Shown: one piece after another, positions 514 through 16,496 of the stretch
Position numbering within the stretch: the stretch's first letter is position 1
Layout: the number at the start of each line of letters is the position of its first letter
Source: Candidatus Amesbacteria bacterium RIFOXYB1_FULL_44_23
GTDB taxonomy: Bacteria; Patescibacteriota; Microgenomatia; CAZETR01; Amesbacteraceae
Reading direction: 5' to 3'
Length of the DNA: 38,251 nt
Assembly: GCA_001773775.1 (NCBI GenBank)
Contig: MEXR01000048.1
Span: forward strand, 1-38,251
Program-made: the position numbers and the translations under genes
The notes under the pieces: generated by a model
The model's database searches: none
What the model saw: only the letters and a program-made list of their open reading frames with translations
What the model was told of the DNA's origin: nothing

Positions 514-583
514 GGCCGCATTCTACTCTCCCAAAAAAATGAAGTCAAATTGTTATAGGCTTCCGAGTTCAATGTCAATTACT

Positions 584-1264
584 TCAGGATAAATTCGGTC
601 TCATGGCCATAACTTCAAAGCCGCCACCACTTGCCGTATCTCTTAAATTAAGGTTCAAATCTTCTCTTAATTTTCGTTGTATTCTTGTACTGGTTGCTGC
701 AAAAAAAGCCAACTCATCCAGATTCACTGTTGCCGATGGACTTTCATAAATTCCGAAAGGTCCCAGTCCCCCAGCAATAGTAACCACATGATCGCTGCGG
801 CAATCAGTTACAGTCACATAATGTCCAAACAACTTATCTCCAAACATTGGATACGCACACGCCATCTGCACCAAGCAAATAGCTCCAGCTTCCAATGATG
901 ATGGAAAGCTCAAAAAGGATACCAATTGACCCGCTGTTGTAAATTCATAATCTTCTACAATCAAACTCTCTCTCACCTTACCGGCAAAAGCTGTCGACGG
1001 ATCGATGTCTTGATTAGGGTCAGTCTTTTTGCAAGCAAAGTCCTGTGATATCTTATAATGATTGGTCCATGAAAACTGAAATGGTAGGCAAGTTCTCCCG
1101 GTTTTGTTCAAAAGGCCGAAAATAACCGCGGCCGGATAACAAAGAAAAAAAGCTTCCCCATCTGTATATCTTTGTAAAACCTCAAACTGCCTCCATTCAT
1201 CACTTGAAACATCTTCGGATACTACCGGCGTCAGTGACGGCATCAATCGAGTGTTAAATCTCAC
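584..1264 (-). CDS. hypothetical protein (226 aa), 5' end uncertain
   Basis: Long ORF; minus-strand TATAAT lies further upstream (~1380-1385), so the N-terminus may be disrupted. Confidence 0.5.
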   Translation of the reverse strand: MRFNTRLMPSLTPVVSEDVSSDEWRQFEVLQRYTDGEAFFLCYPAAVIFGLLNKTGRTCLPFQFSWTNHYKISQDFACKKTDPNQDIDPSTAFAGKVRESLIVEDYEFTTAGQLVSFLSFPSSLEAGAICLVQMACAYPMFGDKLFGHYVTVTDCRSDHVVTIAGGLGPFGIYESPSATVNLDELAFFAATSTRIQRKLREDLNLNLRDTASGGGFEVMAMRPNLS

Positions 1265-1441
1265 GCAATACTGCCCATCGCCCTGTCTTTGTTCGATACG
1301 CGGAATCTAACTAACTTCTTTGGTAATGAATCGGCAATTTTTGAGGAATATCTCTCTGTATCTAGCACAATAGGCAGGTATTATAGAATGGTGCGCTTCT
1401 TTGTCCAATTCAGTCTGGTCGTGGGATAGTTGGCTACAAAA

Positions 1442-1759
1442 CTAATCTCTGCTTTCAGACGGGCAATGCACTTCATATACACTAAACCACAACTGACCTC
1501 TTGTTAAAGGTGAGTATCTAGTTCTAAATACTCTTAATCCGAGCAAACTGTTGAGAATGATCATTAATACAGCAAAACCAATAAGTAGTAAACTTGTGAA
1601 CATCAGACTTTTCTTTTTAGACTTGTCCCTAACTAGAAGGTAGTTACATAGAATTAAAACTGAGACAGAAATTAAAATTACCGGTAGGTTAGTAAGTAAT
1701 GTCCCTTGCAAATCAAATCTTCCCAAAACACACCCCAGACTTTGGAAGTATGGATCCAT
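1442..1759 (-). CDS. small membrane protein (2 TM)
   Basis: Two hydrophobic stretches; TATATT -10 6 nt before ATG 1759. Confidence 0.55.
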   Translation of the reverse strand: MDPYFQSLGCVLGRFDLQGTLLTNLPVILISVSVLILCNYLLVRDKSKKKSLMFTSLLLIGFAVLMIILNSLLGLRVFRTRYSPLTRGQLWFSVYEVHCPSESRD

Positions 1760-1785
1760 GATCAAAATATACTCTTTTTTTACCA

Positions 1786-1812
1786 GTGAGTCATCCGATC
1801 CCAGGTTAGAAC
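1786..1812 (+). repeat. att-like cassette boundary 1 (degraded family-1 tail follows)
   Basis: GTGA-17nt-TAGAAC; GAGCTTGGT (ELG) at 1889-1897 matches the tail at 7110. Confidence 0.45.
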
Positions 1813-1958
1813 AATTTAATCTCCATTTTAAGATCTCCCAAGAAAATCTTTATTGCTGAGGATATCGCCTATTTATTTTGAGATCCAGGAGCTTGGTATC
1901 CAAAGACTATGGGAAAGTTGACGTTTGGATATTATTGGAGTTGAACAATGTGCAAAAA

Positions 1959-2360
1959 TTACTTCGTGCTTTTACCATTTAATGTCAGAAGAGCAAAATA
2001 AACGGAATTTAAGATCATAATCAGAATCACAAAGCTTAATGTGTTTACAAACGCTCTCGTGGGAAGTTCTTGCATGGTCAATAGTCTTCTTCCGTCACAA
2101 AAATAATCCAATATTGTTTCACCTGTCATAGAAGAGTAAGGGCAAGAACTTTTTGATGCAAGTAAGGCAAGATTAGCTACGAACAAAACACTTGAACCAA
2201 TAACGCCCATGATAAGGCTACCTTTTAGGCCAACGAGATAAAATGCGACTTTTTGTTTTGCGTTTAGCTCCCTTAATAGTTTACTTTTTTGGGAAAAGGA
2301 TAAACGTGTATTAAAAAATTCTAAATTATTAAATAGTTCTCTGTAGACAACTTTTGCCAT
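1959..2360 (-). CDS. membrane protein (2 TM), probable start MAKVV
   Basis: Hydrophobic segments; the longer 2414 start runs into the repeat at 2398. Confidence 0.55.
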   Translation of the reverse strand: MAKVVYRELFNNLEFFNTRLSFSQKSKLLRELNAKQKVAFYLVGLKGSLIMGVIGSSVLFVANLALLASKSSCPYSSMTGETILDYFCDGRRLLTMQELPTRAFVNTLSFVILIMILNSVYFALLTLNGKSTK

Positions 2361-2397
2361 GTTCAGTATTGATTCAACAATTACTATACATTTATTT

Positions 2398-2523
2398 GTG
2401 ATCCAAATGGTCATAGTTCGGAATCATATAATTCCAGAACTCATTCAATATTATAAACTGTTTGCTTCCCAGATCTCTAACTTCGGCCTCCAGCCTCAGT
2501 ATAACTACGCTTCGGGATTAGAA
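2398..2523 (+). repeat. 126-bp direct repeat copy 1 (family-2 tail/att scar)
   Basis: Ungapped match to 6106-6231 with about 16 mismatches by manual alignment. Confidence 0.9.
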
Positions 2524-3443
2524 TCACTTAGAATCGCTTCTAATTTCGGCCAAATTTGTTTCCGCATTATTATCGAATCGGTTTTAAATCCTGATTTCAA
2601 TTTTGGGTAATTTAAGGCTTTAGAAAACGTGTTTGTGGATTCCGTATCAATTGTATGGAAAATATTGAACCCCTCTAATATGTCAATTCCGGTAAAGAAA
2701 ACGTAATCCAGATTATTTTCTTCTTTTAGTCTGCCTAGAACCATACTTAATTGGTCATTTAATTTTGTAAGAGTATTTTCTAAATCAGCAATTTCAATTT
2801 GAGCGATTCCAATCCTTTTACCACCTAAACTTTTTACGGCAAAATCCTGAGCTATTAACTGATACAGGTTATCAGCATTTATTGAAGACTTGGAAATAAA
2901 CATTTGTTTAATATAATCTTCAGGCAAAGATATTAAAGTTCTTAACCATTTAGCAGCGTCGATATCTCTTTGGGTTGTAACTGAGTTCTTGAAGTTAACG
3001 GTATTTGAAACAATTGCTGAGTAAAGATAAATAGCCGCATTGTTGGAAGGCTTGAGATTGTTTTTGATAAATTCTTCGGTAATCAGGGTAGCGCAGGAAC
3101 CTACCAGTTCGATATGATTTTTTGAATTAATAAATTTATCCAGAAACACTAATTGCCTATGGTCAAATATCTCAATTACTTTTTTTGAATCGATAGTCGG
3201 TTCAATGGCGTCCGGATCGGCAGTATCCACCAGTACAAACTTATCGTCGGTAGAATAGTTACCGGAATGTACTTCGAGTGGGAAGTAGTTAGTAAATCTC
3301 CTCACAAAATCTACTTCTAATCCCAAATTTCCAAAGCATGTTGCTTTAGCCTTTTTCCCTAAGCCGTTTAGGACTTCAGAATAGCCTATTGCACATGCAA
3401 TACCGTCAAGATCGGGGCCATTGTATGAAGTAACAATTATCAT
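2505..3443 (-). CDS. ppaC: DHH/DHHA2 family II manganese-dependent inorganic pyrophosphatase
   Basis: PDLDG, LVD, IFDHR (DHH variant), VGSCATLI, TTQRD, IAQIE and MRKQI motifs. Confidence 0.8.
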   Translation of the reverse strand: MIIVTSYNGPDLDGIACAIGYSEVLNGLGKKAKATCFGNLGLEVDFVRRFTNYFPLEVHSGNYSTDDKFVLVDTADPDAIEPTIDSKKVIEIFDHRQLVFLDKFINSKNHIELVGSCATLITEEFIKNNLKPSNNAAIYLYSAIVSNTVNFKNSVTTQRDIDAAKWLRTLISLPEDYIKQMFISKSSINADNLYQLIAQDFAVKSLGGKRIGIAQIEIADLENTLTKLNDQLSMVLGRLKEENNLDYVFFTGIDILEGFNIFHTIDTESTNTFSKALNYPKLKSGFKTDSIIMRKQIWPKLEAILSDSNPEA

Positions 3444-3678
3444 TATTTTCGCATTGTGGCGTTAAACACGTCCGGGTTGATTAACAGATCGAGAGCATTA
3501 TTGATCGAGGGGACAAGGATATCAATATGAGGAATTATTCCGGCGTGAATACCTTTAATTTATTTAGTCTCTCCTTAACTCCCTCAACCAATTCACCGTT
3601 TACTGCTAAGGTTCCATTCAAATCAAGAATTATATTAGTTAGTTCAATTTCGCCAACCCCGGTAGGTTTGTAAAGCAT
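3443..3678 (-). pseudogene. internally deleted HAD-family (soluble P-type ATPase-like) hydrolase
   Basis: MLYKPTGVGEIELTNIILDLNGTLAVNG... joined out of frame near 3553 to GIHAGIIPHIDILVPSINNALDLLINPDVFNATMRK*; TAATG overlap with ppaC start. Confidence 0.75.
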
Positions 3679-3712
3679 ACAACCCCTAGATTCTACTAAA
3701 AAATATCAAAAC

Positions 3713-3799
3713 AGTGAACTCACCGCTCCACATGTGGAACTCTTAATTGATGGTACACTCAAAATTTACGAGGAACTAACAATACCAGACTTAATTTAA
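3713..3799 (+). repeat. att-like boundary plus orphan tail, family 1
   Basis: GTGA-17nt-TGGAAC; startless frame SELTAPHVELLIDGTLKIYEELTIPDLI*. Confidence 0.7.
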
Positions 3800-3826
3800 C
3801 AACCGCGATAAGATCGCGGTTGTTAA
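3796..3826. terminator. perfect 14-bp hairpin, probable terminator
   Basis: TTAACAACCGCGAT-AAG-ATCGCGGTTGTTAA directly after the stop of 3828-4331. Confidence 0.7.
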
Positions 3827-3827
3827 T

Positions 3828-4331
3828 TCACGATAACTCAATTCTTGGATGAAGAGTCTTAAGGTGCCGTAACAGTTTATTTATTGTATCGGTATCCCAA
3901 ATGTTAAGGGAAAGGTCAAGATATGTACTGTCGTTATAATAAAAGCTCAGATAACGAACACTTTGGAACCCACGCCAGGTCCTCACAGGAAATCCTGCAT
4001 GCCACGGAACTTGTCTGACGTGACTGACGATCCGTTTCAGATTTGGTAAGTCAACGTTCACAACGTCCCTTTTACCTACACGCCCAAGACTATAAAATGT
4101 CAATATTCCACTATCAACAACCGCCTTTGACTGCATCCAGCCGAATATATAGATTAGTGTCAGGTACACGATCAGACTTCCAGAAACTAGGGTTGCAACT
4201 AACAAAATAGGATTGGTTGAATTATCACCGCCGATTAACTGAAAAAATCCCAGACCGACCGGAAAAATAGAAAGCCAAGCGACCATTCCGCCAAGTAATT
4301 TAATTGAAAACTTAGGCTTAAATACAACCAC
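3828..4331 (-). CDS. membrane protein (2 TM plus soluble beta-rich domain)
   Basis: Two N-terminal hydrophobic helices; CATAAT 6 nt before GTG. Confidence 0.65.
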   Translation of the reverse strand: MVVFKPKFSIKLLGGMVAWLSIFPVGLGFFQLIGGDNSTNPILLVATLVSGSLIVYLTLIYIFGWMQSKAVVDSGILTFYSLGRVGKRDVVNVDLPNLKRIVSHVRQVPWHAGFPVRTWRGFQSVRYLSFYYNDSTYLDLSLNIWDTDTINKLLRHLKTLHPRIELS

Positions 4332-4369
4332 TGCTTAATTATGAAACTCTAATGTATCTTTTCAAAAAA

Positions 4370-4476
4370 GGTGAGCTCGCAGGACTACAGGTGGAGCCCT
4401 GATCTCAGCTATCCTTACAACCTATTATAAACTCCGGGAACTCGGGTTTAAAGAAGATGATGAAAAAGTATTTTAA
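4370..4476 (+). repeat. att-like boundary plus frameshifted orphan tail, family 1
   Basis: GTGA-17nt-TGGAGC; GELAGLQVEP/LISAILTTYYKLRELGFKEDDEKVF* with a 1-nt deletion. Confidence 0.7.
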
Positions 4477-4616
4477 AATAACGGAACCATATCACACATT
4501 TCTTACATGATGACTTTCTGAATTTATATACAACATGAAAAAGGATTGAGACAGCATTTGATCTGGCGGTCAAAGTGCCTGCGGTGCAGGCACAAGGGGA
4601 CTGTATAATTTAGTAA

Positions 4617-5111
4617 ATGAAAATAGTTCTGTTGGGAATCACTGGATCCGGAAAATCGACAATTGCCCAAAAGTTAGCTGATCGCTTCGGCATAGATGTT
4701 GTTGAGGCAGACGACGAGGTCATTAGGTTAAATAATGACCTTTGGCCAAAGGATGAAAAAATAATAGATAAGTATTTTCAAGTCACAAGCGACAAAGTGT
4801 TTACCATGGACAACGTCCTATATGTCATTTCCTGGTTAAGTAAAAAAAGAATCAAACAATTTGCTAGCAATGGCTTCAAAATTATCGAGCTCCACGCAGA
4901 CATCAAAGAACTCCTAAAGAGAAAAATCCAACGCGATAATCCGACCAAAAATGAAATCAGCCGCTTCAAAGAAAATTCCAATGGCTACTATGAGGTTGTA
5001 TTCGATGATGAAATTAAGCCATTGATTAGCTTAAGTCTAGATACCACCACCATAAATCCGGAAGATGTTTTCAAAAAGATTACAAAAGCTCTAAATCAAA
5101 ATGGCCACTGA
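4617..5111 (+). CDS. P-loop kinase (nucleoside monophosphate/shikimate kinase-like)
   Basis: N-terminal Walker A GITGSGKST, EADD, LDTT. Confidence 0.8.
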   Translation: MKIVLLGITGSGKSTIAQKLADRFGIDVVEADDEVIRLNNDLWPKDEKIIDKYFQVTSDKVFTMDNVLYVISWLSKKRIKQFASNGFKIIELHADIKELLKRKIQRDNPTKNEISRFKENSNGYYEVVFDDEIKPLISLSLDTTTINPEDVFKKITKALNQNGH

Positions 5112-6027
5112 GACAAAATCAGTCGAAAGTATTCTTAGAATTGTGGACTTCGTTTCCCATCTTCCAGATTTTCGCGGCTCTGTCGTTGAAATTGTCGACG
5201 GCGGTGTTTCCACTGCGGTATATCGCCTTAAGCGTGATAACGAGGTGTTCTATTTGAGATTGGGTGACATTGGCGGCAATATGTCCTGTGAAGCGCTAGC
5301 CCATAAATTAATGCTGGAAAAAGGGGTATCGGTCCCAAAGGTGATTCAATTCGAAGACGCAAACCCGTTCTTAGGCAGGTCTTTTATGATTACCTCCGAA
5401 ATTCAGGGAGTAAGAACCGATAAAGACGTACATTCCTCAACTGGGATTATTGTCGAAGCGGGTAGGCAATTAGCCTTAATTAATTCCATATCAGTCGAGA
5501 GATTCGGTTGGATTGACAGAAGCGAGATGAATGTCAAAAAGCTATCTGGTACTTTTGGGACATGGGAAGAATTTGCTCTAGACTTAAATAATATTCATTC
5601 CCAATTGAGTAGTCTGGCAAAGACAAACGCGATTACACCTGATATGGTCAAAAAAGTGATAACCTACATCGAAGCCAATAGGGGTCTTATCTCCTGTCCT
5701 CAAGCGTTTCTCTCTCACGGGGATTTTGATGTTACTCACATTTTTTCTGTTAACGGCAAGTATAGCGGCATAATTGATTTCGGAGATATTAGATGTTGCA
5801 GTCCCTATCATGATTTAGCTCATTTTTATACATATAGTCGGAAACAATTTGACAATTTACTTAAAGGCTTCCTAGAGGTATCAAAACTGGAGGATCATCT
5901 GCCGGAGAAAATCAAATTCGAGGCTTTACTGTTTGGGATTGGCAAGCTCTGGTATACGATTGAACATTTTCCGGAAAAGTTCAACTCAAATCACCCGGCC
6001 ATGAGTCTCATTACTAATATAGTGTGA
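5101..6027 (+). CDS. aminoglycoside phosphotransferase (APH)-family kinase
   Basis: VPKV, HGDF (Brenner-like), IIDFGD, DLA motifs; overlaps kinase stop. Confidence 0.85.
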   Translation: MATETKSVESILRIVDFVSHLPDFRGSVVEIVDGGVSTAVYRLKRDNEVFYLRLGDIGGNMSCEALAHKLMLEKGVSVPKVIQFEDANPFLGRSFMITSEIQGVRTDKDVHSSTGIIVEAGRQLALINSISVERFGWIDRSEMNVKKLSGTFGTWEEFALDLNNIHSQLSSLAKTNAITPDMVKKVITYIEANRGLISCPQAFLSHGDFDVTHIFSVNGKYSGIIDFGDIRCCSPYHDLAHFYTYSRKQFDNLLKGFLEVSKLEDHLPEKIKFEALLFGIGKLWYTIEHFPEKFNSNHPAMSLITNIV

Positions 6028-6050
6028 GTTAAAAAAGCCCTTCGCATCGC

Positions 6051-6070
6051 TCCGTGCGTAGGCGCACGGA
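6051..6070. terminator. GC-rich hairpin after APH gene
   Basis: TCCGTGCG-TAGG-CGCACGGA; no U-tract. Confidence 0.4.
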
Positions 6071-6105
6071 CGATATCCCAGAAATCTGAGCGAAACTTCT
6101 TTGAA

Positions 6106-6231
6106 GTGACCCCAAGGGTCGTAGTTCAGAACCAGATAATCCCCGAACTCATTCAATATTATAAACTGTTTGCCTCTCAGATCTCTAGCTTCGACTTCCA
6201 GCCTCAATATAACTACGCTTAGGGATTAGAA
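6106..6231 (+). repeat. 126-bp direct repeat copy 2 (family-2 tail/att scar)
   Basis: GTGA-17nt-CAGAAC; frame VTPRVVVQNQIIPELIQYYKLFASQISSFDFQPQYNYA*. Confidence 0.9.
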
Positions 6232-6255
6232 CCAAGATAATAGTATAATTAATCA

Positions 6256-7029
6256 ATGTATAAACAGCTTAAGGTCGAGGATTTTCGAAAAATACTTAAG
6301 CTTCCGGAAGATTATCGAGTAGACGGGGTTCTGATTCATGGAGCAATGCGAAAGAAAAAGCATAAACAGGAGCTTGAGGAAACTATTGCTAAACTTGGAT
6401 ATAAAGCTAACTACAGCGTGATATATGAAAGTGGATTTTATGAAAACATTACCGTAATTGAAATCGACGGTAAAAGAATTTGGTTTGATTCCTCATATGG
6501 TGGTGCCTATTTATGTGAGGTATTACATATAGCTAGTCAATTAGGATCGAAGAAAAATATTTTGGTGGGATCATGTGGTGGATTAGCACCTTTGGGGCTG
6601 GCAGGTGATATTATTATTCCTTCTTCCAGTTATGGTAACGAAAGCACTACTAGAATGTATCAACCAGATAATGAGGAATTTACGTATTTTCCGGATACAC
6701 AATTAAACGAGAATATAAAAGCAAAGGTCAATCCGAAGTTTAAAATAATTGAAGGTAAACTATTGACTTGTCAGGGAGCTTTGCAGGAATCGTGGGAAGA
6801 TATTGAAAGGTGGTCCAATGAAGGCTACGTAGGCGTAGAAATGGAAAGCTCCACCATGTTTGCCGTATCTAGTTTTTTTAATATCCCCAGCACTGCCATT
6901 TTATTTATTGCAGATAATCTGATTAAAAAAGAAACGCTTTTCGGAGAGAATTTTGAACAATTAATGGAAAAATTTAAAGAATCAAAATTCGAAACCTTTA
7001 AAGTTGCTTTTGAAGAATTGCTCACCTAG
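6256..7029 (+). CDS. nucleoside phosphorylase (PNP/UDP family)
   Basis: VGSCGGL, GDIIIP, GVEMESS motifs. Confidence 0.85.
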   Translation: MYKQLKVEDFRKILKLPEDYRVDGVLIHGAMRKKKHKQELEETIAKLGYKANYSVIYESGFYENITVIEIDGKRIWFDSSYGGAYLCEVLHIASQLGSKKNILVGSCGGLAPLGLAGDIIIPSSSYGNESTTRMYQPDNEEFTYFPDTQLNENIKAKVNPKFKIIEGKLLTCQGALQESWEDIERWSNEGYVGVEMESSTMFAVSSFFNIPSTAILFIADNLIKKETLFGENFEQLMEKFKESKFETFKVAFEELLT

Positions 7030-7108
7030 CCTGACTATAAGTGAGTGGCACAAATAAGGGTATATAAGATCCTATCGATTGTGTTTCCTTTTAGGAAAAT
7101 ACCGAATT

Positions 7109-7246
7109 TGTGAGCTCACTGTACCACAGGTGGAACACCTACTCGAGAGCATTTTCAAAACCTACGAACGATTGAAAGAGCTTGGTTTTACCTACTATAA
7201 CGGCAAAATTGTAGTAATTGACGTTGAGGAGGTGGCTCATGAATAG
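7109..7246 (+). repeat. att-like boundary plus intact orphan tail, family 1
   Basis: GTGA-17nt-TGGAAC; startless frame CELTVPQVEHLLESIFKTYERLKELGFTYYNGKIVVIDVEEVAHE*. Confidence 0.75.
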
Positions 7247-8384
7247 TGATAATTCCTCACTTCAAATAGAAAAACGATGTGAATATGGTTATCATCCTAG
7301 AGGTAATACAATAAATAATATGTTAAAGGAATTAGCCAGTTATTCAGAATCAATTAAAGGTGCAATATTTCCAAGTAATGAACTAAGGTTTGTAAACTGG
7401 TATCTTCAGCATGGATGTGACTTAGATTGTTCCTATTGTAAAGTCCCGAAGCAAAAAATTGGGATTATGTCTCAAGGGGATCGAGATAGCGTTTTATTAA
7501 AAATTCGAAGTTTAAGTTCAAAACAGCCAATTATCAGTCTTTTGGGTGGAGAACTTACACTTCGACCAGATTTTTTAGTTGAAGCAGTTACTGATGCTGC
7601 AAACGTTGGATTTCTTGTTAATGTTGTCAGCAATGGTTGGGGATTAACACCTGATTTAATAAAAAAATTGAGTGCAGCTGGATTGCATTACCTAGGAATA
7701 TCCGTTGATAGTGATGAAAATTCTCTCAAACAAAATTTAGAAAAAGCATTATCACTTCATCGAACCACTCGAGAGATAGGTATTTTACCAGTAATAAATA
7801 CTGTTATCACAAAAGAAACAGATCCGGATACATTTATAAATTTTGCCACTAGGGTGATTAATACTGGTTGTTTTATTAGCCCACTGGCATGTTCCCCCGA
7901 AGTCCCTGGGGGTGTATTTTCCAGTGCATCAATCGACTCTGTGCCTACTCAAGAACAATTAAAAGAAATTGTCCCTTGGCTGGCAATGAAAAAACTCACA
8001 ACAGGTCTTGTTACTTCCAATCTAGGATACCTCTGGACACTTTATAATACCGGCGTATCGGGAGATAACGTTAAATTATGGCATTGCTCGCCACATTTTA
8101 GGTCAAAAAGTGAAACGAACGGAAGAGGGTCATTAACAATAGATTCAGACGGTCATATTGGTCCTTGCCAGGAATTTCCAAGAACTATTAATTTGTTAAA
8201 TTTGCCGCAAAGTCAGCTCTCACTTCAATTGTTAGATACCGCATTTGCACCAGTTACACAAAAATGTCCTGGATGTCTTTACAACTGTTACGTAATGGAA
8301 GAAGGAATTGGTGGTCCTCAACTTCTTGGAGAAATACCCACATTAATCCAAATGGCTAATATTAAGTCCAATAATCACAAATAA
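7239..8384 (+). CDS. radical SAM protein with C-terminal SPASM/twitch-like Cys cluster
   Basis: CDLDCSYC, GGE, SNG, ISVD, GPC and CPGCLYNC; start at 7239 (GGAGGTG upstream) or 7320. Confidence 0.85.
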   Translation: MNSDNSSLQIEKRCEYGYHPRGNTINNMLKELASYSESIKGAIFPSNELRFVNWYLQHGCDLDCSYCKVPKQKIGIMSQGDRDSVLLKIRSLSSKQPIISLLGGELTLRPDFLVEAVTDAANVGFLVNVVSNGWGLTPDLIKKLSAAGLHYLGISVDSDENSLKQNLEKALSLHRTTREIGILPVINTVITKETDPDTFINFATRVINTGCFISPLACSPEVPGGVFSSASIDSVPTQEQLKEIVPWLAMKKLTTGLVTSNLGYLWTLYNTGVSGDNVKLWHCSPHFRSKSETNGRGSLTIDSDGHIGPCQEFPRTINLLNLPQSQLSLQLLDTAFAPVTQKCPGCLYNCYVMEEGIGGPQLLGEIPTLIQMANIKSNNHK

Positions 8385-8470
8385 TTGCCGCCATCTGGGT
8401 ATGGAACTTTTTAGCCTTGAATTTTACGAACATAATTTATGACTAAAATATTTAGCCTTGAAAAGTTGAT

Positions 8471-8617
8471 TTGTGGGACAGCATTTCTGACATCGAACTA
8501 AAGCGTCAAGAAATCCTTCCTCTGCAATTTTACTACGACGACATAGATATTAAAATCCTCCACTACGCGACGAGTGCCAACGTATTTAAGCCTAGTTATC
8601 AAACTTTACAGGTATGA
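8471..8617 (+). other. left att junction carrying the displaced C-terminal tail of the recombinase
   Basis: Startless 49-codon frame L-WDSISDIELKRQEILPLQFYYDDIDIKILHYATSANVFKPSYQTLQV*, in the recombinase register across TTGTG. Confidence 0.7.
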
Positions 8618-9213
8618 GTAATAGTCTTGCAATTAAAACTACCAACGACGATTTTATAGAAAGGCACGTAACTGATAAGGTTTACCGTAAAATCGTTAAG
8701 GAACTATCGGCGGCCGAGGACACCAAAGGGCGAGGCAGGAAGCTAGAACTAACCGCCGAAAAACTTCACAACTTTTTATATTATTTATCCATCGGTGCAA
8801 ACTATAACTTAGCCTCGGAGGCGGCCCAAATCTCAGAAAGTACGCGCCAAAAATACATGGCAAGGTCAGAAGAATTTCGGCGGGTAGCCAGCCTGGCAAA
8901 AGAAAACCTTAAAATCATCGCTTTAGTGGCAATTTCGAAGGCTATGTTAGGAAGAAAACCAGGCTACTACCAATATATTCATCCTGTGACAAAAGAAGCG
9001 ATATACATTTTGGAAAAAGAAATCTCGCCCAACCTTAGAGCGTGCATGTGGTGGCTCGATAAAACGCGGTATTTCGAAGAGCGCCGAGAAGAAGGAAAGG
9101 AAAATAGAAGCCAACTAGGATACCCCCAGAACGAACGAGAGGCCGAACTACTGGAAATGGTATTAAATCGGCACTATGACTATGTGAGAAAAAGAGAGCA
9201 AGAAGATAAGTAG
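8614..9213 (+). CDS. HTH protein resembling phage terminase small subunit-like proteins
   Basis: LTAEKL..YLSIG.NY..ASEAAQISEST..KYM....EF and ACMWWLDK pattern, recognised by eye. Confidence 0.5.
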   Translation: MSNSLAIKTTNDDFIERHVTDKVYRKIVKELSAAEDTKGRGRKLELTAEKLHNFLYYLSIGANYNLASEAAQISESTRQKYMARSEEFRRVASLAKENLKIIALVAISKAMLGRKPGYYQYIHPVTKEAIYILEKEISPNLRACMWWLDKTRYFEERREEGKENRSQLGYPQNEREAELLEMVLNRHYDYVRKREQEDK

Positions 9214-9218
9214 TCGAA

Positions 9219-9686
9219 TTATTCTAATTCTGCTTTTAGCTTAGTGACGTACTCTAGTCTTTCTTCGGGTTTAGATAGAATACTCTTTTTAGTCATATTT
9301 TCGTTGTATAAATCGCCGTCGTAACGGGGGAAGATATGAAGGTGGTAGTGAAAGGCGTGCTGGTTTCCTGCTGGTTCGTTATTTTGTCGTAAAGTTGTGC
9401 CGTCACATTTGTAAGCCTTTTTCATGGCAAGAGCGATTTTCTGCGAAACATCGAAAACCCTATTCCCCACTTCGGGCGGTAATTCGTATAAGTTCTCGAA
9501 ATGGTCGTTAGGAACCACAATTACATGCCCCTTAGCAGTATCTATCCAGAAAGAGTTTATGTATACACTCACAAGCTCATCTTTGTAGACTAAGTCGGCC
9601 TGCTTTAGTAGGGTGTCATCGTTTTCAATTCCTTTTACGCCTAAACAAATAGGACACTTGTAGTTGTTAGGCGCGTGATTATGCAT
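9219..9686 (-). CDS. HIT family nucleotide hydrolase
   Basis: CPIC, GHVIVVP, HYHLHIFPR histidine triad. Confidence 0.92.
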   Translation of the reverse strand: MHNHAPNNYKCPICLGVKGIENDDTLLKQADLVYKDELVSVYINSFWIDTAKGHVIVVPNDHFENLYELPPEVGNRVFDVSQKIALAMKKAYKCDGTTLRQNNEPAGNQHAFHYHLHIFPRYDGDLYNENMTKKSILSKPEERLEYVTKLKAELE

Positions 9687-9731
9687 ATTTCGAGTTTAAC
9701 AATTTTAGTCGATAATTGCTATAATTCTTTC

Positions 9732-10313
9732 ATGAGAATCTATCTTATAAGGCACGGGCAGACCACGGGCGATATAGAAGACCGATACGGTGGAGATTAC
9801 GAAGACCATTTAACCGAAGAAGGCAAAGAACAAGGAAAAAATTTAGCTAATAAATTAGTCGATAAGAATATAGAGGTTGTTTTTTGCAGTCCTAGAATCA
9901 GAGCGCAAGAAACAGCAGAATTTATTAAGCGAAAAACTGGTGTGCTAGTCGAAGTTGTGGAAGATATTCGAGAAAGAAACCACTACGGCGTGATGACTGG
10001 CATGGTTAAGGCCGAAGCGAAACTTAAATATCCCATCCTAGTAGAACTTCTTAAAGACACAAAAAAGACAGTAGATGGGGGTGAAGACTACGAAACCTTT
10101 AAGAGCAGAGTTGTAGGCGCGTGGAATAACCTTACAAGTTCAGACCATAAAACGATAGCAATCCTCTCTCACGGTGGCCCTATCAGGCTTATTTTTAGGG
10201 AAATTCTAAATAAAGGGGAAATTAAAATCGGCGACTGCGCCTATGCTGTCATAGATACGGACGGTGAAGTTTTAAGTATAGCCGAAACAGACGGAATAGA
10301 AGTGCAAGAATAA
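9732..10313 (+). CDS. histidine phosphatase (phosphoglycerate mutase) family
   Basis: LIRHGQT, SPRIRAQET, SHGG; TATAAT 6 nt before ATG 9732. Confidence 0.92.
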   Translation: MRIYLIRHGQTTGDIEDRYGGDYEDHLTEEGKEQGKNLANKLVDKNIEVVFCSPRIRAQETAEFIKRKTGVLVEVVEDIRERNHYGVMTGMVKAEAKLKYPILVELLKDTKKTVDGGEDYETFKSRVVGAWNNLTSSDHKTIAILSHGGPIRLIFREILNKGEIKIGDCAYAVIDTDGEVLSIAETDGIEVQE

Positions 10314-10314
10314 G

Positions 10315-10336
10315 TGCGCCATGTGGCGCATATTTT
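10315..10336 (+). terminator. probable intrinsic terminator
   Basis: TGCGCC-ATGT-GGCGCA followed by TATTTT. Confidence 0.5.
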
Positions 10337-10357
10337 GTTAGAATATAGGTGTAAATT

Positions 10358-11335
10358 ATGAAGATAAAAATTGACGAATTAAAGCAACTAATGAAGACCG
10401 CTCTAACGAGTAAATACTACTCGCCAGAGGAAGCAGATTTAATGGTGGAAGTCTTTTTGCACGCCGAGCTTACTGGCAAAAATACGCAAGGGATTCTTAA
10501 ACTTCTAGGAACAGAGCCAGCGCAGGACATAAAACCCAAGCACCCGCCTAAAATAACAAAGGAAACTAATTTGTCTGTCCTAATTGACGGCGGCGGTGCG
10601 GCGGGGCCTCTTGTAGGGCAAATCGCCACAAATAAAGCGATAGAAATCGCCAAAAAGAACAACTTCGCAATCGTAGGCACGAACAATACCTTTTCCTCGG
10701 TAGGGGCAATCGGCTTTTATGCGCGTAAAATAGCTGATTCCGATTTAATTGGAATTGTCGCCGCGAGTTCGCCGCGTGGAGTACTTCACTTCGGCGGCAT
10801 TGACCCAGCTTACGGAACTAATCCGACAGCTTTCGGATTCCCCACAAACGAGTTTCCTATCGTTTTCGACATGGCCGCTTCTGCAATTACTTGGTATGGC
10901 CTAGTTAGAGCAAAAGCTTTAGGACAGAAACTTCCCGATAATGTCGCAGTAGATAAGGAAGGGAACCTTACCACTGACCCAGAAGAAGCCATGAAAGGCG
11001 CCATATTACCCTTCGACCGTTCGTATAAAGGTTCTGGCATGGCTATGGTGGTAGAGTTACTGGCTGGGCCTTTAGTAGGTGCCTCTTACGTACATGACAA
11101 TGGCGACTGGGGTACTGTTTTTATTGCTATTAACCCAGAATTACTTGTAGGCGTCGAGGACTTTAAGACTCATGCTTCCGACCTTGTTAAAAAGGTAAAA
11201 TCTGGCAGAACAAAAAATGGTGAGATAATTCACATTCCAGGGTACGATTCAGAGGCTACAAGGCAAACTATTTTAGATAGTGGCGAAATAGAAATGGAAG
11301 AAAAACTTATTAACGACTTAAAAGCAAAAATATAA
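10358..11335 (+). CDS. Ldh_2 family oxidoreductase (malate/L-lactate/ureidoglycolate dehydrogenase-like)
   Basis: GTNPTAF, FDMAAS, YKGSG, IPG motifs. Confidence 0.88.
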   Translation: MKIKIDELKQLMKTALTSKYYSPEEADLMVEVFLHAELTGKNTQGILKLLGTEPAQDIKPKHPPKITKETNLSVLIDGGGAAGPLVGQIATNKAIEIAKKNNFAIVGTNNTFSSVGAIGFYARKIADSDLIGIVAASSPRGVLHFGGIDPAYGTNPTAFGFPTNEFPIVFDMAASAITWYGLVRAKALGQKLPDNVAVDKEGNLTTDPEEAMKGAILPFDRSYKGSGMAMVVELLAGPLVGASYVHDNGDWGTVFIAINPELLVGVEDFKTHASDLVKKVKSGRTKNGEIIHIPGYDSEATRQTILDSGEIEMEEKLINDLKAKI

Positions 11336-11350
11336 AATCGGAGAATCTAT

Positions 11351-11968
11351 ATGTTAAATGAAAATTTCGTAATTGTAGGTACTTTAATAGGTGCGGTAGG
11401 TTCATTAGCCTATTTAATTGACACGGTAAAGGGAAAAGTGAAACCTAATAGGGTATCCTTTCTACTCTGGTCGATTGCGCCGTTTATAGCTTTTGCCGCA
11501 CAGATAAAACAGGGTGTAGGCTTAGAGTCGCTAATGACATTTAGCACGGGTTTTTTACCGTTTATTATCTTCTTAGCTTCATTCGTAAATAAAAAGGCTG
11601 AATGGAAACTAACGAGATTCGATATTATTTGCGGCGTTTTATCTATATTAGGCCTTATTTTATGGCTGGTAACTAGGGTCGGAAACATTGCGATAACATT
11701 TAGTATCCTGGCAGACGGACTTGCCGCAGTACCGACAATAATTAAAGCTTATAAATACCCAGATACAGAGATTGCCTGGCCCTGGATTGCTACCGCTTTC
11801 GGCGTAGTCCTCACCCTCCTAACGCTTGACGGTCTAACTTTCGCCAACTCTGGATTTATTATTTACATACTAATTGTAAACACCCTTATTTTCAGCCTAG
11901 TTCAGTTTAGAATCGGCGAAAAATTGGGATTTAAGTCAGAAGAAGAAGGCCCGTTAAGAGACAAGTAA
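11351..11968 (+). CDS. multi-pass membrane protein
   Basis: About 7 hydrophobic segments; KPNRVSFLLW and PTIIKAYKYPDTE loop motifs. Confidence 0.75.
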   Translation: MLNENFVIVGTLIGAVGSLAYLIDTVKGKVKPNRVSFLLWSIAPFIAFAAQIKQGVGLESLMTFSTGFLPFIIFLASFVNKKAEWKLTRFDIICGVLSILGLILWLVTRVGNIAITFSILADGLAAVPTIIKAYKYPDTEIAWPWIATAFGVVLTLLTLDGLTFANSGFIIYILIVNTLIFSLVQFRIGEKLGFKSEEEGPLRDK

Positions 11969-11974
11969 AATACG

Positions 11975-13447
11975 TTAGGCTTTAGAAGCAGACGGCTTAT
12001 TATCTTTCCTGGCGTCGATAAGTACGATGTTTTCTGCATCCGTTAAACCCAACCTTTTTAGAATATCCTGCACTCGCTTTAATTCCTTTAAGGTAAAGTA
12101 AATTATCACCTTAATGTTTTTATCGGTATCGTTGGCCTTTTCGTACACTCCTACCTGGTTTTGCAAATTTCTTTCTAATTGGGTATTAGTCGCAAGTTTT
12201 AGTTCGACCAAACTTTTATCGGCAGAGCCTTTAGAAACCTTTACGTCTACTGGGCCACGACCATTATTCACTTCGGTATTAAAGTCGAAGGTGGAACCGT
12301 ACCAGGTCAAGCGATAGGCTATTTTTAGGTCTTCCTCACGCCGTATAGGTTCTCCGTTAACGTAGAAGTACCTGTACCCGTCGTTATTTTCTATTACTGA
12401 CTTTAGGTACTGAACCCGCTGCATGGCTTCCTGGTAGGAGTCTGGGCTGGTTTTATAAAAGTCAGTCTTTTCGCCTAGAAGTAAGGCCAGAGCCTTAAAC
12501 TGCTCGGTATAGACCGTTTCAGAGAATGCCACTTTTTGCTCGCTAATGCTAGTCGCCCTATCGCCGTTATCCTCTTTACGCTTAATGTAATAATCAATTA
12601 GCTCTGGGAATTCGAGAATGGTCTTAATAGCCGCCTCTTTTTCATCCTTCCTTTTTGGCTCTTCGGGCAAGACGCTTTGGAAATAATTATTTACTTTCGC
12701 TCGTAATTCTTCGTTCGAAATTGCATAGGGAATGCTTGCAAATTCGTCTACCAGGTCGTCTTTATTTATCCAGGTTTCGTCCTTCGTAAGCATGTCTTTA
12801 GGAGTTAGAATTACAAAATCACCCTGGAAGCTAGGTAAATAATACCCGTCTTCTTCCCACGACTGGGTGTCATAGTTGAATCGTGCGCGGGGTACACGAA
12901 AATTACGGCAGAGCTTGGGGTCGAGATGTTTTTGTGCGAATACTTGGGTATATTGCAGTAGGTAGTCTTTTATGAGGTTTGTTGTAAAGTCGCTGATATT
13001 ATCTTTACCGACGCCATCTTTTATAAGGCACAACTTTTCTAAATGGGAACTTCTGGTAACTTTTTCCTGGCCGTAGTCGTTAAAAATTCTGGCGAAATTT
13101 TCATTTAATGCCCGCGCAAAATCATTACCTAGTGCGCTTCCCTTATTACCTTCTACCGAAAAGCCGAACCAGTTTTGCTCGACTTCCTTAAAACGATACC
13201 AGGCAGACAATAAGCCTTTGTTAATCGGTTGGGAAGTAGATTTATCACGCAAGAAACGCAGATAAGTAATTATCCCTTCGTGGAGTTGCTGGTACTCTGA
13301 TTTTTTGCTGTTAAAAAGCAGGAAGGGGTCAATAAAAAGAGGTAGGTCGGCGACCAGTGAAATATCGAACGCCCCGTAATCTTCTAGCGCCTTCTTACTG
13401 ATTCCGAAATAATCGGAAAATAATATCTTCGGCTGGTTATTTTCCAT
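11975..13447 (-). CDS. uncharacterised protein with C-terminal PD-(D/E)xK nuclease-like motif
   Basis: E..NGRGPVDVKV....LVELK...Q...Y; N-terminal DLPLFIDPFLLF. Confidence 0.6.
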   Translation of the reverse strand: MENNQPKILFSDYFGISKKALEDYGAFDISLVADLPLFIDPFLLFNSKKSEYQQLHEGIITYLRFLRDKSTSQPINKGLLSAWYRFKEVEQNWFGFSVEGNKGSALGNDFARALNENFARIFNDYGQEKVTRSSHLEKLCLIKDGVGKDNISDFTTNLIKDYLLQYTQVFAQKHLDPKLCRNFRVPRARFNYDTQSWEEDGYYLPSFQGDFVILTPKDMLTKDETWINKDDLVDEFASIPYAISNEELRAKVNNYFQSVLPEEPKRKDEKEAAIKTILEFPELIDYYIKRKEDNGDRATSISEQKVAFSETVYTEQFKALALLLGEKTDFYKTSPDSYQEAMQRVQYLKSVIENNDGYRYFYVNGEPIRREEDLKIAYRLTWYGSTFDFNTEVNNGRGPVDVKVSKGSADKSLVELKLATNTQLERNLQNQVGVYEKANDTDKNIKVIIYFTLKELKRVQDILKRLGLTDAENIVLIDARKDNKPSASKA

Positions 13448-13521
13448 AACATAGGACAGTTAAGTTATTATAACTCACCCAGGGTAACAATTTCATGCTA
13501 TTCTGCCGAAATTATTGCCAC

Positions 13522-13821
13522 CTACTGCGCTAATTTGCTTTCGATAAGTTCTCTAGCCTTCTTAGCGTCGTCGACTTTAATAAAGCCGCCTTCGAGTTTT
13601 TGGTCGCCAGTGCTATGGATGATAATTTTTGCCGCACCACCAGAGATAAACGGAATTTTTACCGCCTGAACTTTTAACTCTACCCCAGAAATGTTTTTAT
13701 AAAACAAGGTTTTAGAGTTATCTACGCCAAGCGCTTTAAGCTCTATAGCTACTCGGTCGTCATAAACGACTAAATGGCCGCCAGTACAGCGTGTCTTAAA
13801 TAATTGTTGCATTAGATTCAC
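13522..13821 (-). CDS. small beta-rich (PH-like) hypothetical protein
   Basis: 99-aa ORF preceded by AGGGGG; alternating beta pattern and terminal helix. Confidence 0.55.
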   Translation of the reverse strand: MNLMQQLFKTRCTGGHLVVYDDRVAIELKALGVDNSKTLFYKNISGVELKVQAVKIPFISGGAAKIIIHSTGDQKLEGGFIKVDDAKKARELIESKLAQ

Positions 13822-13882
13822 CCCCTTTCATAATTTTTAACCTTTAACTTAGGATTCTTATTTTTGCTGGGGGCTTTTCCAC

Positions 13883-14012
13883 AAAAAGCTCCCACCAGCG
13901 ATGGCTTGCGCCACCTGCTACCCTTTCGGATAACAGCCTCGACAGCGCTCTGGTAGGAGCTTGTTGCTGTCGAGGTCTTTGTGCCATGCCCCTTACGGGG
14001 TTTAGGCAACAC
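13883..14012 (-). ncRNA. candidate structured RNA of unknown family
   Basis: Four adjacent hairpins, three with GNRA loops (GUAA, GAAA, GCAA) on the minus strand, plus an alternative 13-bp helix ending in a U-tract. Confidence 0.6.
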
Positions 14013-14028
14013 TAGATTTTATTTAGCC

Positions 14029-14214
14029 TTACGGCTTAGTTGTACTATTCATTATTTTCTGTATGTCTGACAATTTGTATCGTCTATCCTTTCTCTTTCC
14101 TATTCTAACAGCGTTTAGACGGCCTTCGTTATCCCAACGTCGAAGCGTTTCGGGGTTTATCCCTAGTAGTTCGGCCGCTTCCCTAATTTTTATGAGTTTA
14201 CTATTATCATTCAT
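14029..14214 (-). CDS. MerR-like HTH excisionase / recombination directionality factor
   Basis: IREAAELLGINPETLRRWDNEG..R...RRY; divergent from the recombinase operon. Confidence 0.85.
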   Translation of the reverse strand: MNDNSKLIKIREAAELLGINPETLRRWDNEGRLNAVRIGKRKDRRYKLSDIQKIMNSTTKP

Positions 14215-14262
14215 AACTTCTATTAAATTATACTATAATAAACATACGAAAAGTAAAGAACT

Positions 14263-14667
14263 ATGAAAAATAAATCGGATAAGTACAAACTTCCCACAGG
14301 TGACGAATACGAAGGGCTTTTCAACCCAGAAGATTTAATGACCGTGTATTTCGTTAGGAATGGCGTCGGCTATAGGTGGGGTATTCCTTATAAAATTTTC
14401 GCTTCTAGTCGCTTCCAGGATATGAAGGAACCGTACGCAGATAAGGATTTAGTGGCGCTAGGCGGTGTTTTATTCGACATTTTAGTTATCGACAAGTATG
14501 CAATCGACTTCAAGCAAAAGACAGGCGTACAGAAGTTAAGCGTGGTCGTGAGGTCGTCCGAAACCGAGGATAAACAATTACTTCATAAACTGACGGGTAA
14601 GTTTCGAGAAAAAAGCGAAGTACTGAATAGAGATAGCATACCAGGAACTAATAAAGACCATGAATAG
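14263..14667 (+). CDS. hypothetical protein overlapping recombinase start
   Basis: 134-aa ORF with 8-nt overlap with the recombinase. Confidence 0.65.
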   Translation: MKNKSDKYKLPTGDEYEGLFNPEDLMTVYFVRNGVGYRWGIPYKIFASSRFQDMKEPYADKDLVALGGVLFDILVIDKYAIDFKQKTGVQKLSVVVRSSETEDKQLLHKLTGKFREKSEVLNRDSIPGTNKDHE

Positions 14668-16426
14668 TAAGCAAACAGTACCACTTCGGGCGGCAGTTTA
14701 CCTTCGGGTATCGACTGACGACCAGATAGAAAAATACGGCATTCCGCTACAAAAAGCGGCTGTAGACGCTGTAATTAACTCTAAAGGAAAGCTGGACGAC
14801 GGCTCGCCCGCTATGGTGCTTGCAGGAGAGCAATATATTTATAAGGACGAGGGTGTGAGCGGCGCTGACCCACTAGACGAACGACCAGCCTTTCTACGCA
14901 TGAAGGAAGATATAGAAAATGCGCCAGAGGGCGAAAAACCGTTCGATATTGTAGCCGTTTATCGAATTGACAGGTTCGCACGTAAGCTAAAAATTTTACT
15001 AGAGGTAATCGAATACTACGAAGCCCATGACATTCAGTTCATATCTGCCAATGAAAGTATCGACACTTCCACCCCGTTTGGTAAGGCTATGCTAGGTATT
15101 ATCGGCGTAATTGCCGAGCTGGAAAGAGAAACTACAAAAGCCAGAACCCAAGCTGGCAAAGTGCAAGCCATAGAACGAGGGGTCTATATGGGCGCACAAG
15201 CGCCTTATGGCTACCTAAAAGATAAGGACAAGCACCTACAAGTTTTTGCACCAGAGTCTAAAGTTGTCGAAGAAATCTTCGAATTGTTCGTATCACAGAA
15301 AAAGAATACCCAACAAATAGCAGACTACCTAGCTAGTAAGAAAATCCTTACCCCACTTCCTTCGGCAGTTCATTATGGAAAAAGACGAAAGGGACGCACA
15401 AAAGTTAACGACGAATACTTCTGGCGGGATTCTACCGTAAGAGGCATTGTTAAGGATGAAATATATCTGGGAATTTACTACTACAATAAGCACGAAGGAA
15501 AAAAACGCTTAGATAAATCACTCTGGAAAAAATCACCGACAGAACATGATTCCATTATCGACTATGGCACCTTTAGCATGGCCCAACAGCGTATTAAAGA
15601 AGATGTGGCCTTACGTAATAGCGCTAAAGCGGTCGAAAACCACTTATACCTACTATCTGGCCTCTTAAAATGCCACGCATGTTACGACCCATATTCTGGT
15701 CGCGACCCACTAAACTGGTCTGGTACAAGTAAGGTTATAAAGAAAAACGGCAAACGTGCCTACTACTATCATTGTGGGGCTAAAAACTCTAAGAAATACT
15801 CGACTGTGTGTAAAGCAATTCCATTCCCAGCCGATGAAATAGAAGCATTCGTTACCCAGTTTATTAAAGACTTGCTAAGCGACCCAGAGAACGTCTACAG
15901 GCATATTAACACGTTGCAATCTACGAAAATGGATAAAAGGAAGCTCCTAAAAAGACAGGTAGATATAACAAAAATGTTAAATCGAATACCTGGTAGCCGC
16001 CAGAATATAAAGCGCATGTACGGCAAAGGAGACATTACCGACGCAGACTACGACGAAAGAATGGCTAATGTTAAAAAGCAGGAAGCTGATTTAAGGAAAG
16101 ATTTATTAGTAATACAGGGACAAATCGGCGAAGATAAAATCTCGGAAATTTATGCTAGTACCTTTAAGCTGTTCGCGAAAAAATACAAGCCTTTCCTAGA
16201 CGGCCTAATGACCGACAGGCAGGAAGTATCCGACCTAATTCACCTTATTGTCGACAGAGTTAACGTTTATACGCGAAAAGCAACGAAAAAAGACAAAATC
16301 GCAGGCCGAAAAAAGGAAGACCAGGTAATCCCATACCAGGTGAGGATAGATTTACGCTTGCCGCAAGACATTATGCAACGCCTAGCACGGCAAGGTAAGT
16401 TCGAAGTCAGAAACGATAACTTGTGA
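14660..16426 (+). CDS. large serine recombinase (integrase)
   Basis: YLRVST catalytic Ser, DEGVSG, RP, DRFAR, APYGY, Zn-ribbon LLSGLLKCHAC...YYHC, coiled coil. Confidence 0.95.
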   Translation: MNSKQTVPLRAAVYLRVSTDDQIEKYGIPLQKAAVDAVINSKGKLDDGSPAMVLAGEQYIYKDEGVSGADPLDERPAFLRMKEDIENAPEGEKPFDIVAVYRIDRFARKLKILLEVIEYYEAHDIQFISANESIDTSTPFGKAMLGIIGVIAELERETTKARTQAGKVQAIERGVYMGAQAPYGYLKDKDKHLQVFAPESKVVEEIFELFVSQKKNTQQIADYLASKKILTPLPSAVHYGKRRKGRTKVNDEYFWRDSTVRGIVKDEIYLGIYYYNKHEGKKRLDKSLWKKSPTEHDSIIDYGTFSMAQQRIKEDVALRNSAKAVENHLYLLSGLLKCHACYDPYSGRDPLNWSGTSKVIKKNGKRAYYYHCGAKNSKKYSTVCKAIPFPADEIEAFVTQFIKDLLSDPENVYRHINTLQSTKMDKRKLLKRQVDITKMLNRIPGSRQNIKRMYGKGDITDADYDERMANVKKQEADLRKDLLVIQGQIGEDKISEIYASTFKLFAKKYKPFLDGLMTDRQEVSDLIHLIVDRVNVYTRKATKKDKIAGRKKEDQVIPYQVRIDLRLPQDIMQRLARQGKFEVRNDNL

Positions 16427-16496
16427 CTCCACGGGGACTCGAACCCCGGTTACCAGGATGAGAACCTGGTGTCCTAGACCGCTAGACGATGGAGCC
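16424..16496 (-). tRNA. tRNA-Glu (anticodon CTC), CCA not encoded
   Basis: GGCTCCA/TGGAGTC acceptor stem, CCAGG-TTCTCAT-CCTGG anticodon arm, GTTCGAGT T-loop. Confidence 0.95.

Follow-up and report, generated by a model that had tools for sequence, protein, structure and literature searches.

Severed ends of large serine recombinase genes beside a tRNA-Glu gene in a Candidatus Amesbacteria genome: a probable trace of serial insertion and decay

The window analysed here is the entire 38,251-nt contig MEXR01000048.1 (C48) of Candidatus Amesbacteria bacterium RIFOXYB1_FULL_44_23, a metagenome-derived genome bin of 1.11 Mb in 62 contigs (92% complete) from a small groundwater bacterium, which is placed in the Patescibacteria by its relatives. 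Repeated sites lie beside its tRNA-Glu(ctc) gene, an observation that is confirmed here, and the seven sites are probably the P' halves of attachment (att) sites used by large serine recombinases (LSRs), each carrying the severed 3' end of an LSR gene, left by serial insertion and subsequent decay. In the mechanism we propose, attP would lie in the last codons of the LSR gene, and recombination at the dinucleotide GT with the tRNA gene's 3' end would cause the body of the LSR gene to read into the antisense tRNA (attR), while the native tail of the gene would be left behind at the opposite end of the island (attL). One LSR family, with tails A and B, would account for six or more older insertions into the flank of tRNA-Glu(ctc), each being cut down to a tail plus one or two genes, and the most recent insertion would be the intact island at 8473–16423, whose LSR is of another family. 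The LSR bodies of the older elements would have been lost by deletion, possibly mediated by LSRs, and the att junctions of resident elements may themselves be targets, as in accretion.

The pattern GTGA-N17-YRGARY matches six times in the window, always on the plus strand and within 1786–7136, at exactly the positions listed in a preliminary description of this DNA (1786, 2398, 3714, 4371, 6106, and 7110). Comparison of the motif frequency with background had been named there as a check, and in 100 dinucleotide-preserving shuffles of the window the pattern matched 0.81 times on average and at most 4 times, none reaching six. Because the motif was defined post hoc, this count overstates the significance, but it is supported by independent similarity among the sites: those at 2398 and 6106 open a 129-nt direct repeat with 87% identity, and those at 3714, 4371, and 7110 form one 25-nt family. 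Across the 1.11-Mb genome (2.23 M strand-bases) the pattern matches 28 times, the 22 matches outside the window being spread over 19 contigs and both strands. A seventh site, GTGG-N16-TCGAAC at 8473, and the 3' end of tRNA-Glu at 16423, which reads GTGA-N12-TCGAAC on the plus strand, are also as previously described, and an Rfam search gave no match at the GTG sites. The DNA following the six sites encodes short peptides, or tails, of two families: the frame xGT GAG gives related peptides at 7110, 3714, 4371 (frameshifted), and 1786 (family A), and the frame GTG Axx gives another peptide at 2398 and 6106 (family B).

1786–1859, plus strand: site a, degenerate family-A-like putative P' half-site (GTGA-N17-TAGAAC) with a short tail remnant; unit to 2397
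2398–2526, plus strand: site b, family-B tail in the GTG frame, stop lost; unit to 3713
3714–3799, plus strand: site c, short family-A tail; unit to 4370
4371–4476, plus strand: site d, family-A tail with a one-base frameshift; unit to 6105
6106–6222, plus strand: site e, 38-codon family-B tail, with an end close to that of the P0155 LSR tail; unit to 7109
7110–7246, plus strand: site f, intact family-A tail; unit to 8472
8473–8617, plus strand: putative attL, P' arm with the 47 displaced 3'-terminal codons of the resident LSR gene
16423–16496, minus strand: tRNA-Glu(ctc), whose 3' end would be the B' half-site, with GT 16423–16424 as the likely crossover

The tails are tied to recombinases by locus L015, where an intact gene for a 512-aa LSR (7298–8836; Pfam Resolvase 5.2e-21, Recombinase 1.9e-11, zinc ribbon 8.1e-10) reads through GTGAG and stops 14 codons later, with a family-A open reading frame (ORF) overlapping in the next frame. 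A search with the C-terminal half of this LSR returned 188 proteins at E<=1e-5, and among the 120 of these matches that were listed, the conserved end of the family (...ISFLV or ...ISKMV) could be located in 96. Members of this large Patescibacteria family are conserved up to a single Val codon (GTG) and diverge afterwards; in 72 of the 96, the fifth residue beyond this Val begins a T-loop-like G/R-[FILVM]-E-[PL] motif, which we read as the translated antisense T-loop of a tRNA in one fixed register, and several read V-T-P-R-G-I-E-P-R-L-P-G, which is the window's tRNA-Glu read in the same way. Other members end in tails: protein P0155, representing a cluster of 123 sequences, has a family-B-like C-terminus, P0230 runs in frame into a family-A tail, and six more carry a third tail family (family C), which is also found at L015 4471 and L020 13813. 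Since members read either into a tRNA or into native tails, attP would lie in the last LSR codons, the target would be the tRNA's 3' end, and orphan tails would be attL sites. The earlier proposals that the tails are homologous to recombinase C-termini and that attP lies inside the recombinase reading frame are therefore both borne out by L015, P0155, and P0230. The tRNA 3' end as a target was also proposed, and this part stands, given the 72 of 96 members and two relatives in which an LSR gene abuts the same site, but the LSR element of L015 lies between a resident right end (RE, described below) and a resident tail, and entry thus need not be at the tRNA itself.

The spacing of the sites is consistent with this reading. 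The tails read GTGA-N17-(T/C)GGAA(C/T), so that if the TCGAAC/TGGAAC hexamer is taken, by assumption, as the zinc-ribbon motif, it stands at N17 in the six tails and N16 at 8473 but at N12 in the tRNA half, which fits the inward shift of attB reported in part of a study of an A118-type integrase, where the zinc-ribbon motif of attB sits 5 bp nearer the centre than in attP (PMC3783163). Two further LSR genes in the genome bear on tRNA targeting: one on contig C3 (28176–29705) reads into tRNA-Gln(ctg), and one on contig C60 (23047–24546) has an end that resembles an antisense tRNA, with no tRNA called there. At L015 7149–7250 and L016 4338–4472 (both minus strand), an inverted LSR 3' end is joined at GTG to a family-C tail in an attP-like arrangement, and these inverted copies sit just upstream of the intact LSR gene.

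Outside the window, family A is represented at 26 loci in other Patescibacteria genomes (L041 and L042, which are EAL-like chance matches, are excluded from every family-A count), and at all 26 the homology begins at GTGAG, directly after an arbitrary base N, with unrelated DNA upstream. The best-preserved copy, at 7110, is 93.5% identical to L015/L016 at the DNA level; its LSR frame (GTG AGC ...) is open for 21 codons and is overlapped by a small ORF of the next frame (45 codons counted from the junction) that is conserved across many genomes. Among representative proteins, 209 match family A at E<=1e-3, nearly all of them 33–124 aa long, and the long ones (a subtilase, a truncated DDAH-like protein, and an AbiEii protein) are chance fusions at insertion junctions inside host genes. 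Within the window, tail 3714 matches tail 7110 in tblastn with 52% identity over 21 aa, and the tail at 1786 is assigned by eye only (E-S-S-D-P-R-L-E-Q-F), with no significant tblastn match elsewhere. The two family-B copies, at 2398 and 6106, differ mostly by synonymous changes in the GTG frame. Family B has nine other matches in 400 genomes of the class, all orphan with open frames of 38–67 aa, and in none of the nine is the tail fused to an LSR. In tblastn searches of the genome, none of the seven window tails used as queries found a match outside C48; the P0155 tail as query found an orphan family-B tail on contig C14 (13350–13454, minus strand; E 3e-6). Pfam assigns no family to the tails. 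The idea that a tail is the end of a host gene was rejected, as searches for longer proteins with tails 7110 and 8473 gave only short or unrelated fusions and hence no common host gene.

Decay of the tails grows leftwards: the tail at 7110 is intact, the one at 6106 still ends at its own stop, a frameshift is present at 4371, the copy at 3714 is short, the stop is gone at 2398, and at 1786 a tail can hardly be made out. Degeneration, frameshift, or truncation thus affects four of the six. An order of entry in which units arrived near the tRNA and displaced older ones to the left fits this gradient, the one feature from which the order is deduced. On the far side of tail A, 15 of 17 ORFs are homologous PLD-like proteins of ~150–180 aa with an HxKxxxxD motif and 52–81% identity (loci L015, L017, L021, L022, L024, L026–L034, and L039). 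The small conserved ORF and the PLD-like gene thus adjoin the P' end of these elements; in the window, a radical SAM gene occupies this position after tail 7110. To the left of GTGAG, L017, L019, L020, and L022 often show a hairpin and T run that look, by eye, like an intrinsic terminator.

The seventh site belongs to a different element, the resident island, which carries the following features.

8614–14667: cargo comprising a 199-aa ORF, HIT, histidine phosphatase, Ldh_2 dehydrogenase, membrane protein, and 490-aa, 99-aa, and 134-aa ORFs
13900–14008, minus strand: LOOT RNA (Rfam RF03000), bit score 80.9, gathering score 46.4
14029–14214, minus strand: HTH_17/MerR excisionase-like gene
14660–16426, plus strand: resident LSR, 588 aa as integrated, with its TGA stop inside the tRNA 3' end

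From four lines of evidence we take 8473–16423 to be one island with GT as the crossover. The 32 bases to the left of GT 16423, read outward, agree with the 32 bases to the right of GT 8473 at 19 positions, including a block of 16 out of 17, while other centres give 5–10 matches and 1 of 20,000 random 32-mers reaches 19. When the junction is joined by coordinates, the LSR frame remains open through the 47-codon ORF at 8473–8617, for a total of 635 codons. The 8473 tail occurs in three database proteins, each with a different N-terminal part joined at the same residue, and Logan contigs of runs X1 and X11 match rightwards from exactly 8473, with other DNA to the left. On these sequence features, the stretch would be a single intact 7.95-kb island, and the mirror symmetry with the LSR 3' end supports the earlier designation of 8473 as an island end. 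The resident LSR (Pfam Resolvase 2.6e-31, Recombinase 2.7e-18, Zn_ribbon_recom 1e-08) is too distant from the L015 family for tblastn to connect them, and it is therefore not the enzyme to which the six older tails belong. A scan of 20 ORFs over 250–16426 returned no Phage_integrase domain, the LSR being the only recombinase there. The LOOT RNA is located between the 99-aa ORF and the HTH_17 gene, and overlaps a probably spurious 64-aa ORF.

Two of the sites have a recognisable sequence on their left side.

6026–6105, plus strand: degenerate 3' end stub of an LSR gene (putative P arm), directly before site e
8391–8475, plus strand: RE, a conserved right end of ~85 nt that stops at the GT junction

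The stub shares 87.7% identity over 81 nt with L020 20055–20135, a region that is matched by LSR C-terminal queries (tblastn, 20007–20120) and lies after the LSR match of L020. Taken as a degenerate P arm, 6026–6105 leaves the unit 4371–6105 with both arms, and the earlier claim that each unit consists of one or two cargo genes without a recombinase body holds with the correction that this unit keeps an LSR 3' stub of ~80 nt. A tail together with RE would likewise give both arms to 7110–8475; the other four units have a tail only, and no conserved left arm was recognised for the remaining five of the seven sites. With nhmmer, RE was found in seven further copies in six loci (L015, L016, two in L018, L020, L021, and L023), and every copy stops immediately before GTG while the partner that follows differs (tRNA-Glu ctc, tRNA-Glu ttc, tail A, or other tail families). 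At L018, RE–tail A and RE–tRNA-Glu form both ends of a unit without a tblastn match to the resident LSR, although ORFs were not scanned there. Two origins of RE are ruled out: it is not native flank of tRNA-Glu, as 0 of 24 relatives carry it beside this gene, nor the end of a PLD gene, as the ORFs overlapping it (L015 4015–4482 and L023 10101–10619) are not PLD homologs. DNA shared with other loci is confined to the tails (starting at 7105–7110, 6097–6106, and 2389–2398), RE, the stub, and the tRNA.

ARAGORN finds a single tRNA in the window, with greA to its right, and the tRNA-Glu-greA pair is retained in 22 of 27 loci examined from relatives; GC content is 0.34–0.41 over 1500–8500 and 0.44–0.47 to the right of the tRNA. 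On the left, the 226-aa ORF at 584–1264 found no match in 60 relatives, and the outer boundary of the variable region therefore cannot be set. In genomes G026 and G021, the 3' end of an L015-type LSR gene abuts tRNA-Glu(ctc) beside greA, and in G021 only a 36-codon LSR stub is left, with a family-C tail 840 nt to its left (a 0.84-kb remnant). Tail B lies 0.65–0.9 kb from tRNA-Glu(ctc) in G050 and G393, and tail A lies 3.7–4.2 kb from a tRNA-Glu in L018 and L021. Small recombinase-less remnants are thus common at this tRNA. The stub at 6026–6105 and the G021 remnant indicate that trimming does occur, and favour it over cassettes moved in trans. At L074 (G026:C7, 12782–15450), two tRNA-Glu(ctc) genes face each other with minus-strand LSR pieces between them, a 27-codon LSR 3' fragment abutting the second; this arrangement looks like an inversion between att sites.

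The older units, 612, 1316, 657, 1735, 1004, and 1363 bp in length, each contain one or two ORFs, and the cargo of three of the six is on the minus strand.

1959–2414, minus strand: unit a, 151-aa membrane-like ORF
2505–3443, minus strand: unit b, DHH/DHHA2 phosphoesterase (Pfam)
3828–4331, minus strand: unit c, 167-aa membrane-like ORF
4617–5111: unit d, P-loop kinase
5101–6027: unit d, APH-family phosphotransferase
6256–7029: unit e, PNP_UDP_1 phosphorylase
7218–8384: unit f, radical SAM protein

Unit b also contains a 47-aa ORF (3535–3678, minus strand) with an LDLNGTL motif, which resembles an N-terminal piece of a HAD-type hydrolase and is presumably a gene remnant.

Several points weigh against serial insertion by tail-bearing LSR elements. 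Recombination of attP with attR or attL is not an expected activity of LSRs, and repeated entry is thus left unexplained by their directionality. The family-B tail of the window matches the P0155 tail weakly (44% over 25 aa, E 0.055). In family A, most tails do not share the LSR frame, P0230 alone fusing the two, and the family-A junction is followed by ~14–21 codons in the LSR frame, the conserved 45-codon ORF being in the next frame. No LSR carrying the 8473 tail in one frame was found, its three database matches all being junction fusions. RE is not an LSR 3' end. A profile of the in-frame LSR C-terminus, scanned over 23,369 GTG sites of the genome, reported 970 of them, none in the window (best score 10 bits), and thus recognised no stub upstream of any window site. 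In addition, position 1437 is followed by GTA and then by 3835 in Logan contigs from runs X7 and X12, so that 2397 bases with three tails are missing, and neither position is a GTG site (short sides of 63–64 letters at a likeness threshold of 90). At each of these breakpoints, the stop-codon end of a minus-strand membrane-protein ORF (two ORFs in all) is only a few bases away. The preliminary description had expected breakpoints to coincide with GTG sites, and this is so for homology to other genomes, which starts within a few bases of GTG, but not for this strain-level indel. Neither a joint at a GTG site nor a circular or excised junction appears in the Logan contigs, which, as they drop rare forms, speak neither for nor against on this point.

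A different account of the units is possible but unlikely, namely that they form an active cassette system in which a tail, one or two genes, and a right end are moved in trans by LSRs acting at X-GT-(tRNA end/resident tail). In its favour, two of the seven junctions, RE at 8391–8475 and the stub at 6026–6105, have conserved left partners that recur elsewhere, the L018 unit, from RE–tail A to RE–tRNA-Glu, has both ends, the L015 element indicates that RE–tail junctions can be targets, and cargo varies while the ends are conserved. Against this, no LSR cognate to the older tails was found in the 92%-complete genome, the best match, on C3, being 30% identical with a different C-terminus; four of the six tails are damaged; minus-strand cargo in half of the units provides no shared promoter logic; five of the seven left arms have no recognisable conserved end; and no excised or circular junction is seen in contigs, which cannot reveal rare forms. 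We likewise see a small chance that the units are non-autonomous cassettes (P' tail, genes, and LSR stub or RE) moved in trans, as part of a cassette store at tRNA genes of Patescibacteria. If so, the position of attP in the LSR frame and in the small ORF would mean that integration alters both products, a switch between the free and integrated states. The earlier suggestion of a serine-recombinase analogue of an integron is not supported, given that no cognate LSR was found, cargo on both strands, damaged tails, and an indel that misses the GTG sites.

Two other explanations are very improbable, and equally so. The sites could be displaced tRNA 3' fragments from tyrosine-integrase islands, as the first 11–13 bases of some of them resemble the acceptor end of tRNA-Glu (GTGACCCCAAGGG at 6106 vs GTGACTCCACGGGG) and islands at tRNA genes are normally of the tyrosine-integrase type, as part of the Islander report states (PMC4383910). 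The similarity stops after ~13 bases, however, and the spacing is N17 rather than the N12 set by tRNA geometry; the sites are homologous to LSR C-termini, Phage_integrase is absent from the 20 ORFs scanned, and ARAGORN calls a single tRNA. The read-through at L015, the LSR matches of the tails, and the fixed register in 72 of 96 members already contradict a tRNA-fragment origin. The array could also reflect chance motif matches or a chimeric metagenome assembly, considering that the motif was chosen after looking, that the contig comes from a metagenome bin, and that Logan contigs break near 7139–7150, 8485–8502, and 16468–16482. Yet none of the 100 shuffles reaches six matches, the tails are homologous to sequences in dozens of other genomes, and one X1 contig covers 1375–7139 without a difference, others bridging 7150–8502 and 8485–14160; X1 is possibly the source sample, so its contigs are not independent evidence.

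Serial insertion of LSR elements, which we consider the probable explanation, has parallels in several known systems, the nearest being the accretion and decay of site-specific elements. The elements described here share with A118, Bxb1, and phiC31 type elements the Resolvase, Recombinase, and zinc-ribbon domains, short att sites arranged as imperfect inverted repeats around a central dinucleotide, and an outer motif 4–5 bp nearer the centre in the bacterial half-site. They differ in that the targets are the 3' ends of tRNA genes, of many isoacceptors in one register, and in that attP lies inside the LSR frame, so that integration would swap the C-terminus of the enzyme. SCCmec-type composite islands are likewise arrays formed by insertion at resident att sites. 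In tandem accretion of integrative and conjugative or mobilizable elements (ICEs/IMEs), as treated in part of PMC5704250, entry also occurs at an att site that belongs to a resident element, in many cases a decayed one, and recombinase-less arrays, including cis-mobilizable elements (CIMEs), stand beside an intact one. These arrays, however, mostly involve tyrosine recombinases and repeats that are pieces of the target gene, whereas here the repeats are recombinase-gene ends and the units are 0.6–1.7 kb. Archaeal integration of the SSV type splits the int gene at a tRNA, and its fragments mark old insertions; it relies on a tyrosine recombinase and a long segment of tRNA identity, whereas here a serine recombinase would act with a 2-bp crossover and 14–47 displaced codons. 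The integrases of Mx8 and SSV are described in part of the Islander report as extending across attP (PMC4383910).

The likeness to integrons lies in a series of short units that each begin with a recombination site and stand beside a recombinase gene. By contrast, the tyrosine recombinase IntI was not found in the 20 ORFs, and the adjacent recombinase is not the one to which the tails belong. Integron cassettes are co-oriented, mostly promoterless, and expressed from one promoter, whereas the cargo here is on both strands, and attI with its promoter and the hairpins of attC differ from the present sites, which are explained as duplex LSR half-sites.

Serine integrases are stated not to be known to target tRNA genes in a passage of PMC4383910 (2015 database issue), and the word tRNA is absent from the main text of a large LSR survey (PMC10083194), whose supplements may list tRNA targets. 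Our literature search found no description of tRNA-targeting LSRs or of such arrays, which is not proof of absence. The targeting of tRNA genes by a serine recombinase and the splitting of the enzyme's own gene, neither of which was found in the literature searched, are unusual. One-way DNA insertion is routinely done with serine integrases, whose natural targets are mostly described as protein genes. The elements described here would provide natural attP/attB pairs in which the bacterial half is a universal feature of tRNA, and they raise the idea that integration alters the C-terminus of the enzyme that performs it. Orphan tails would be a simple sequence marker of old insertions in very small genomes, and the present locus shows how accessory genes, including kinases, a phosphorylase, and a radical SAM enzyme, accumulate at one tRNA in a 1.1-Mb genome.

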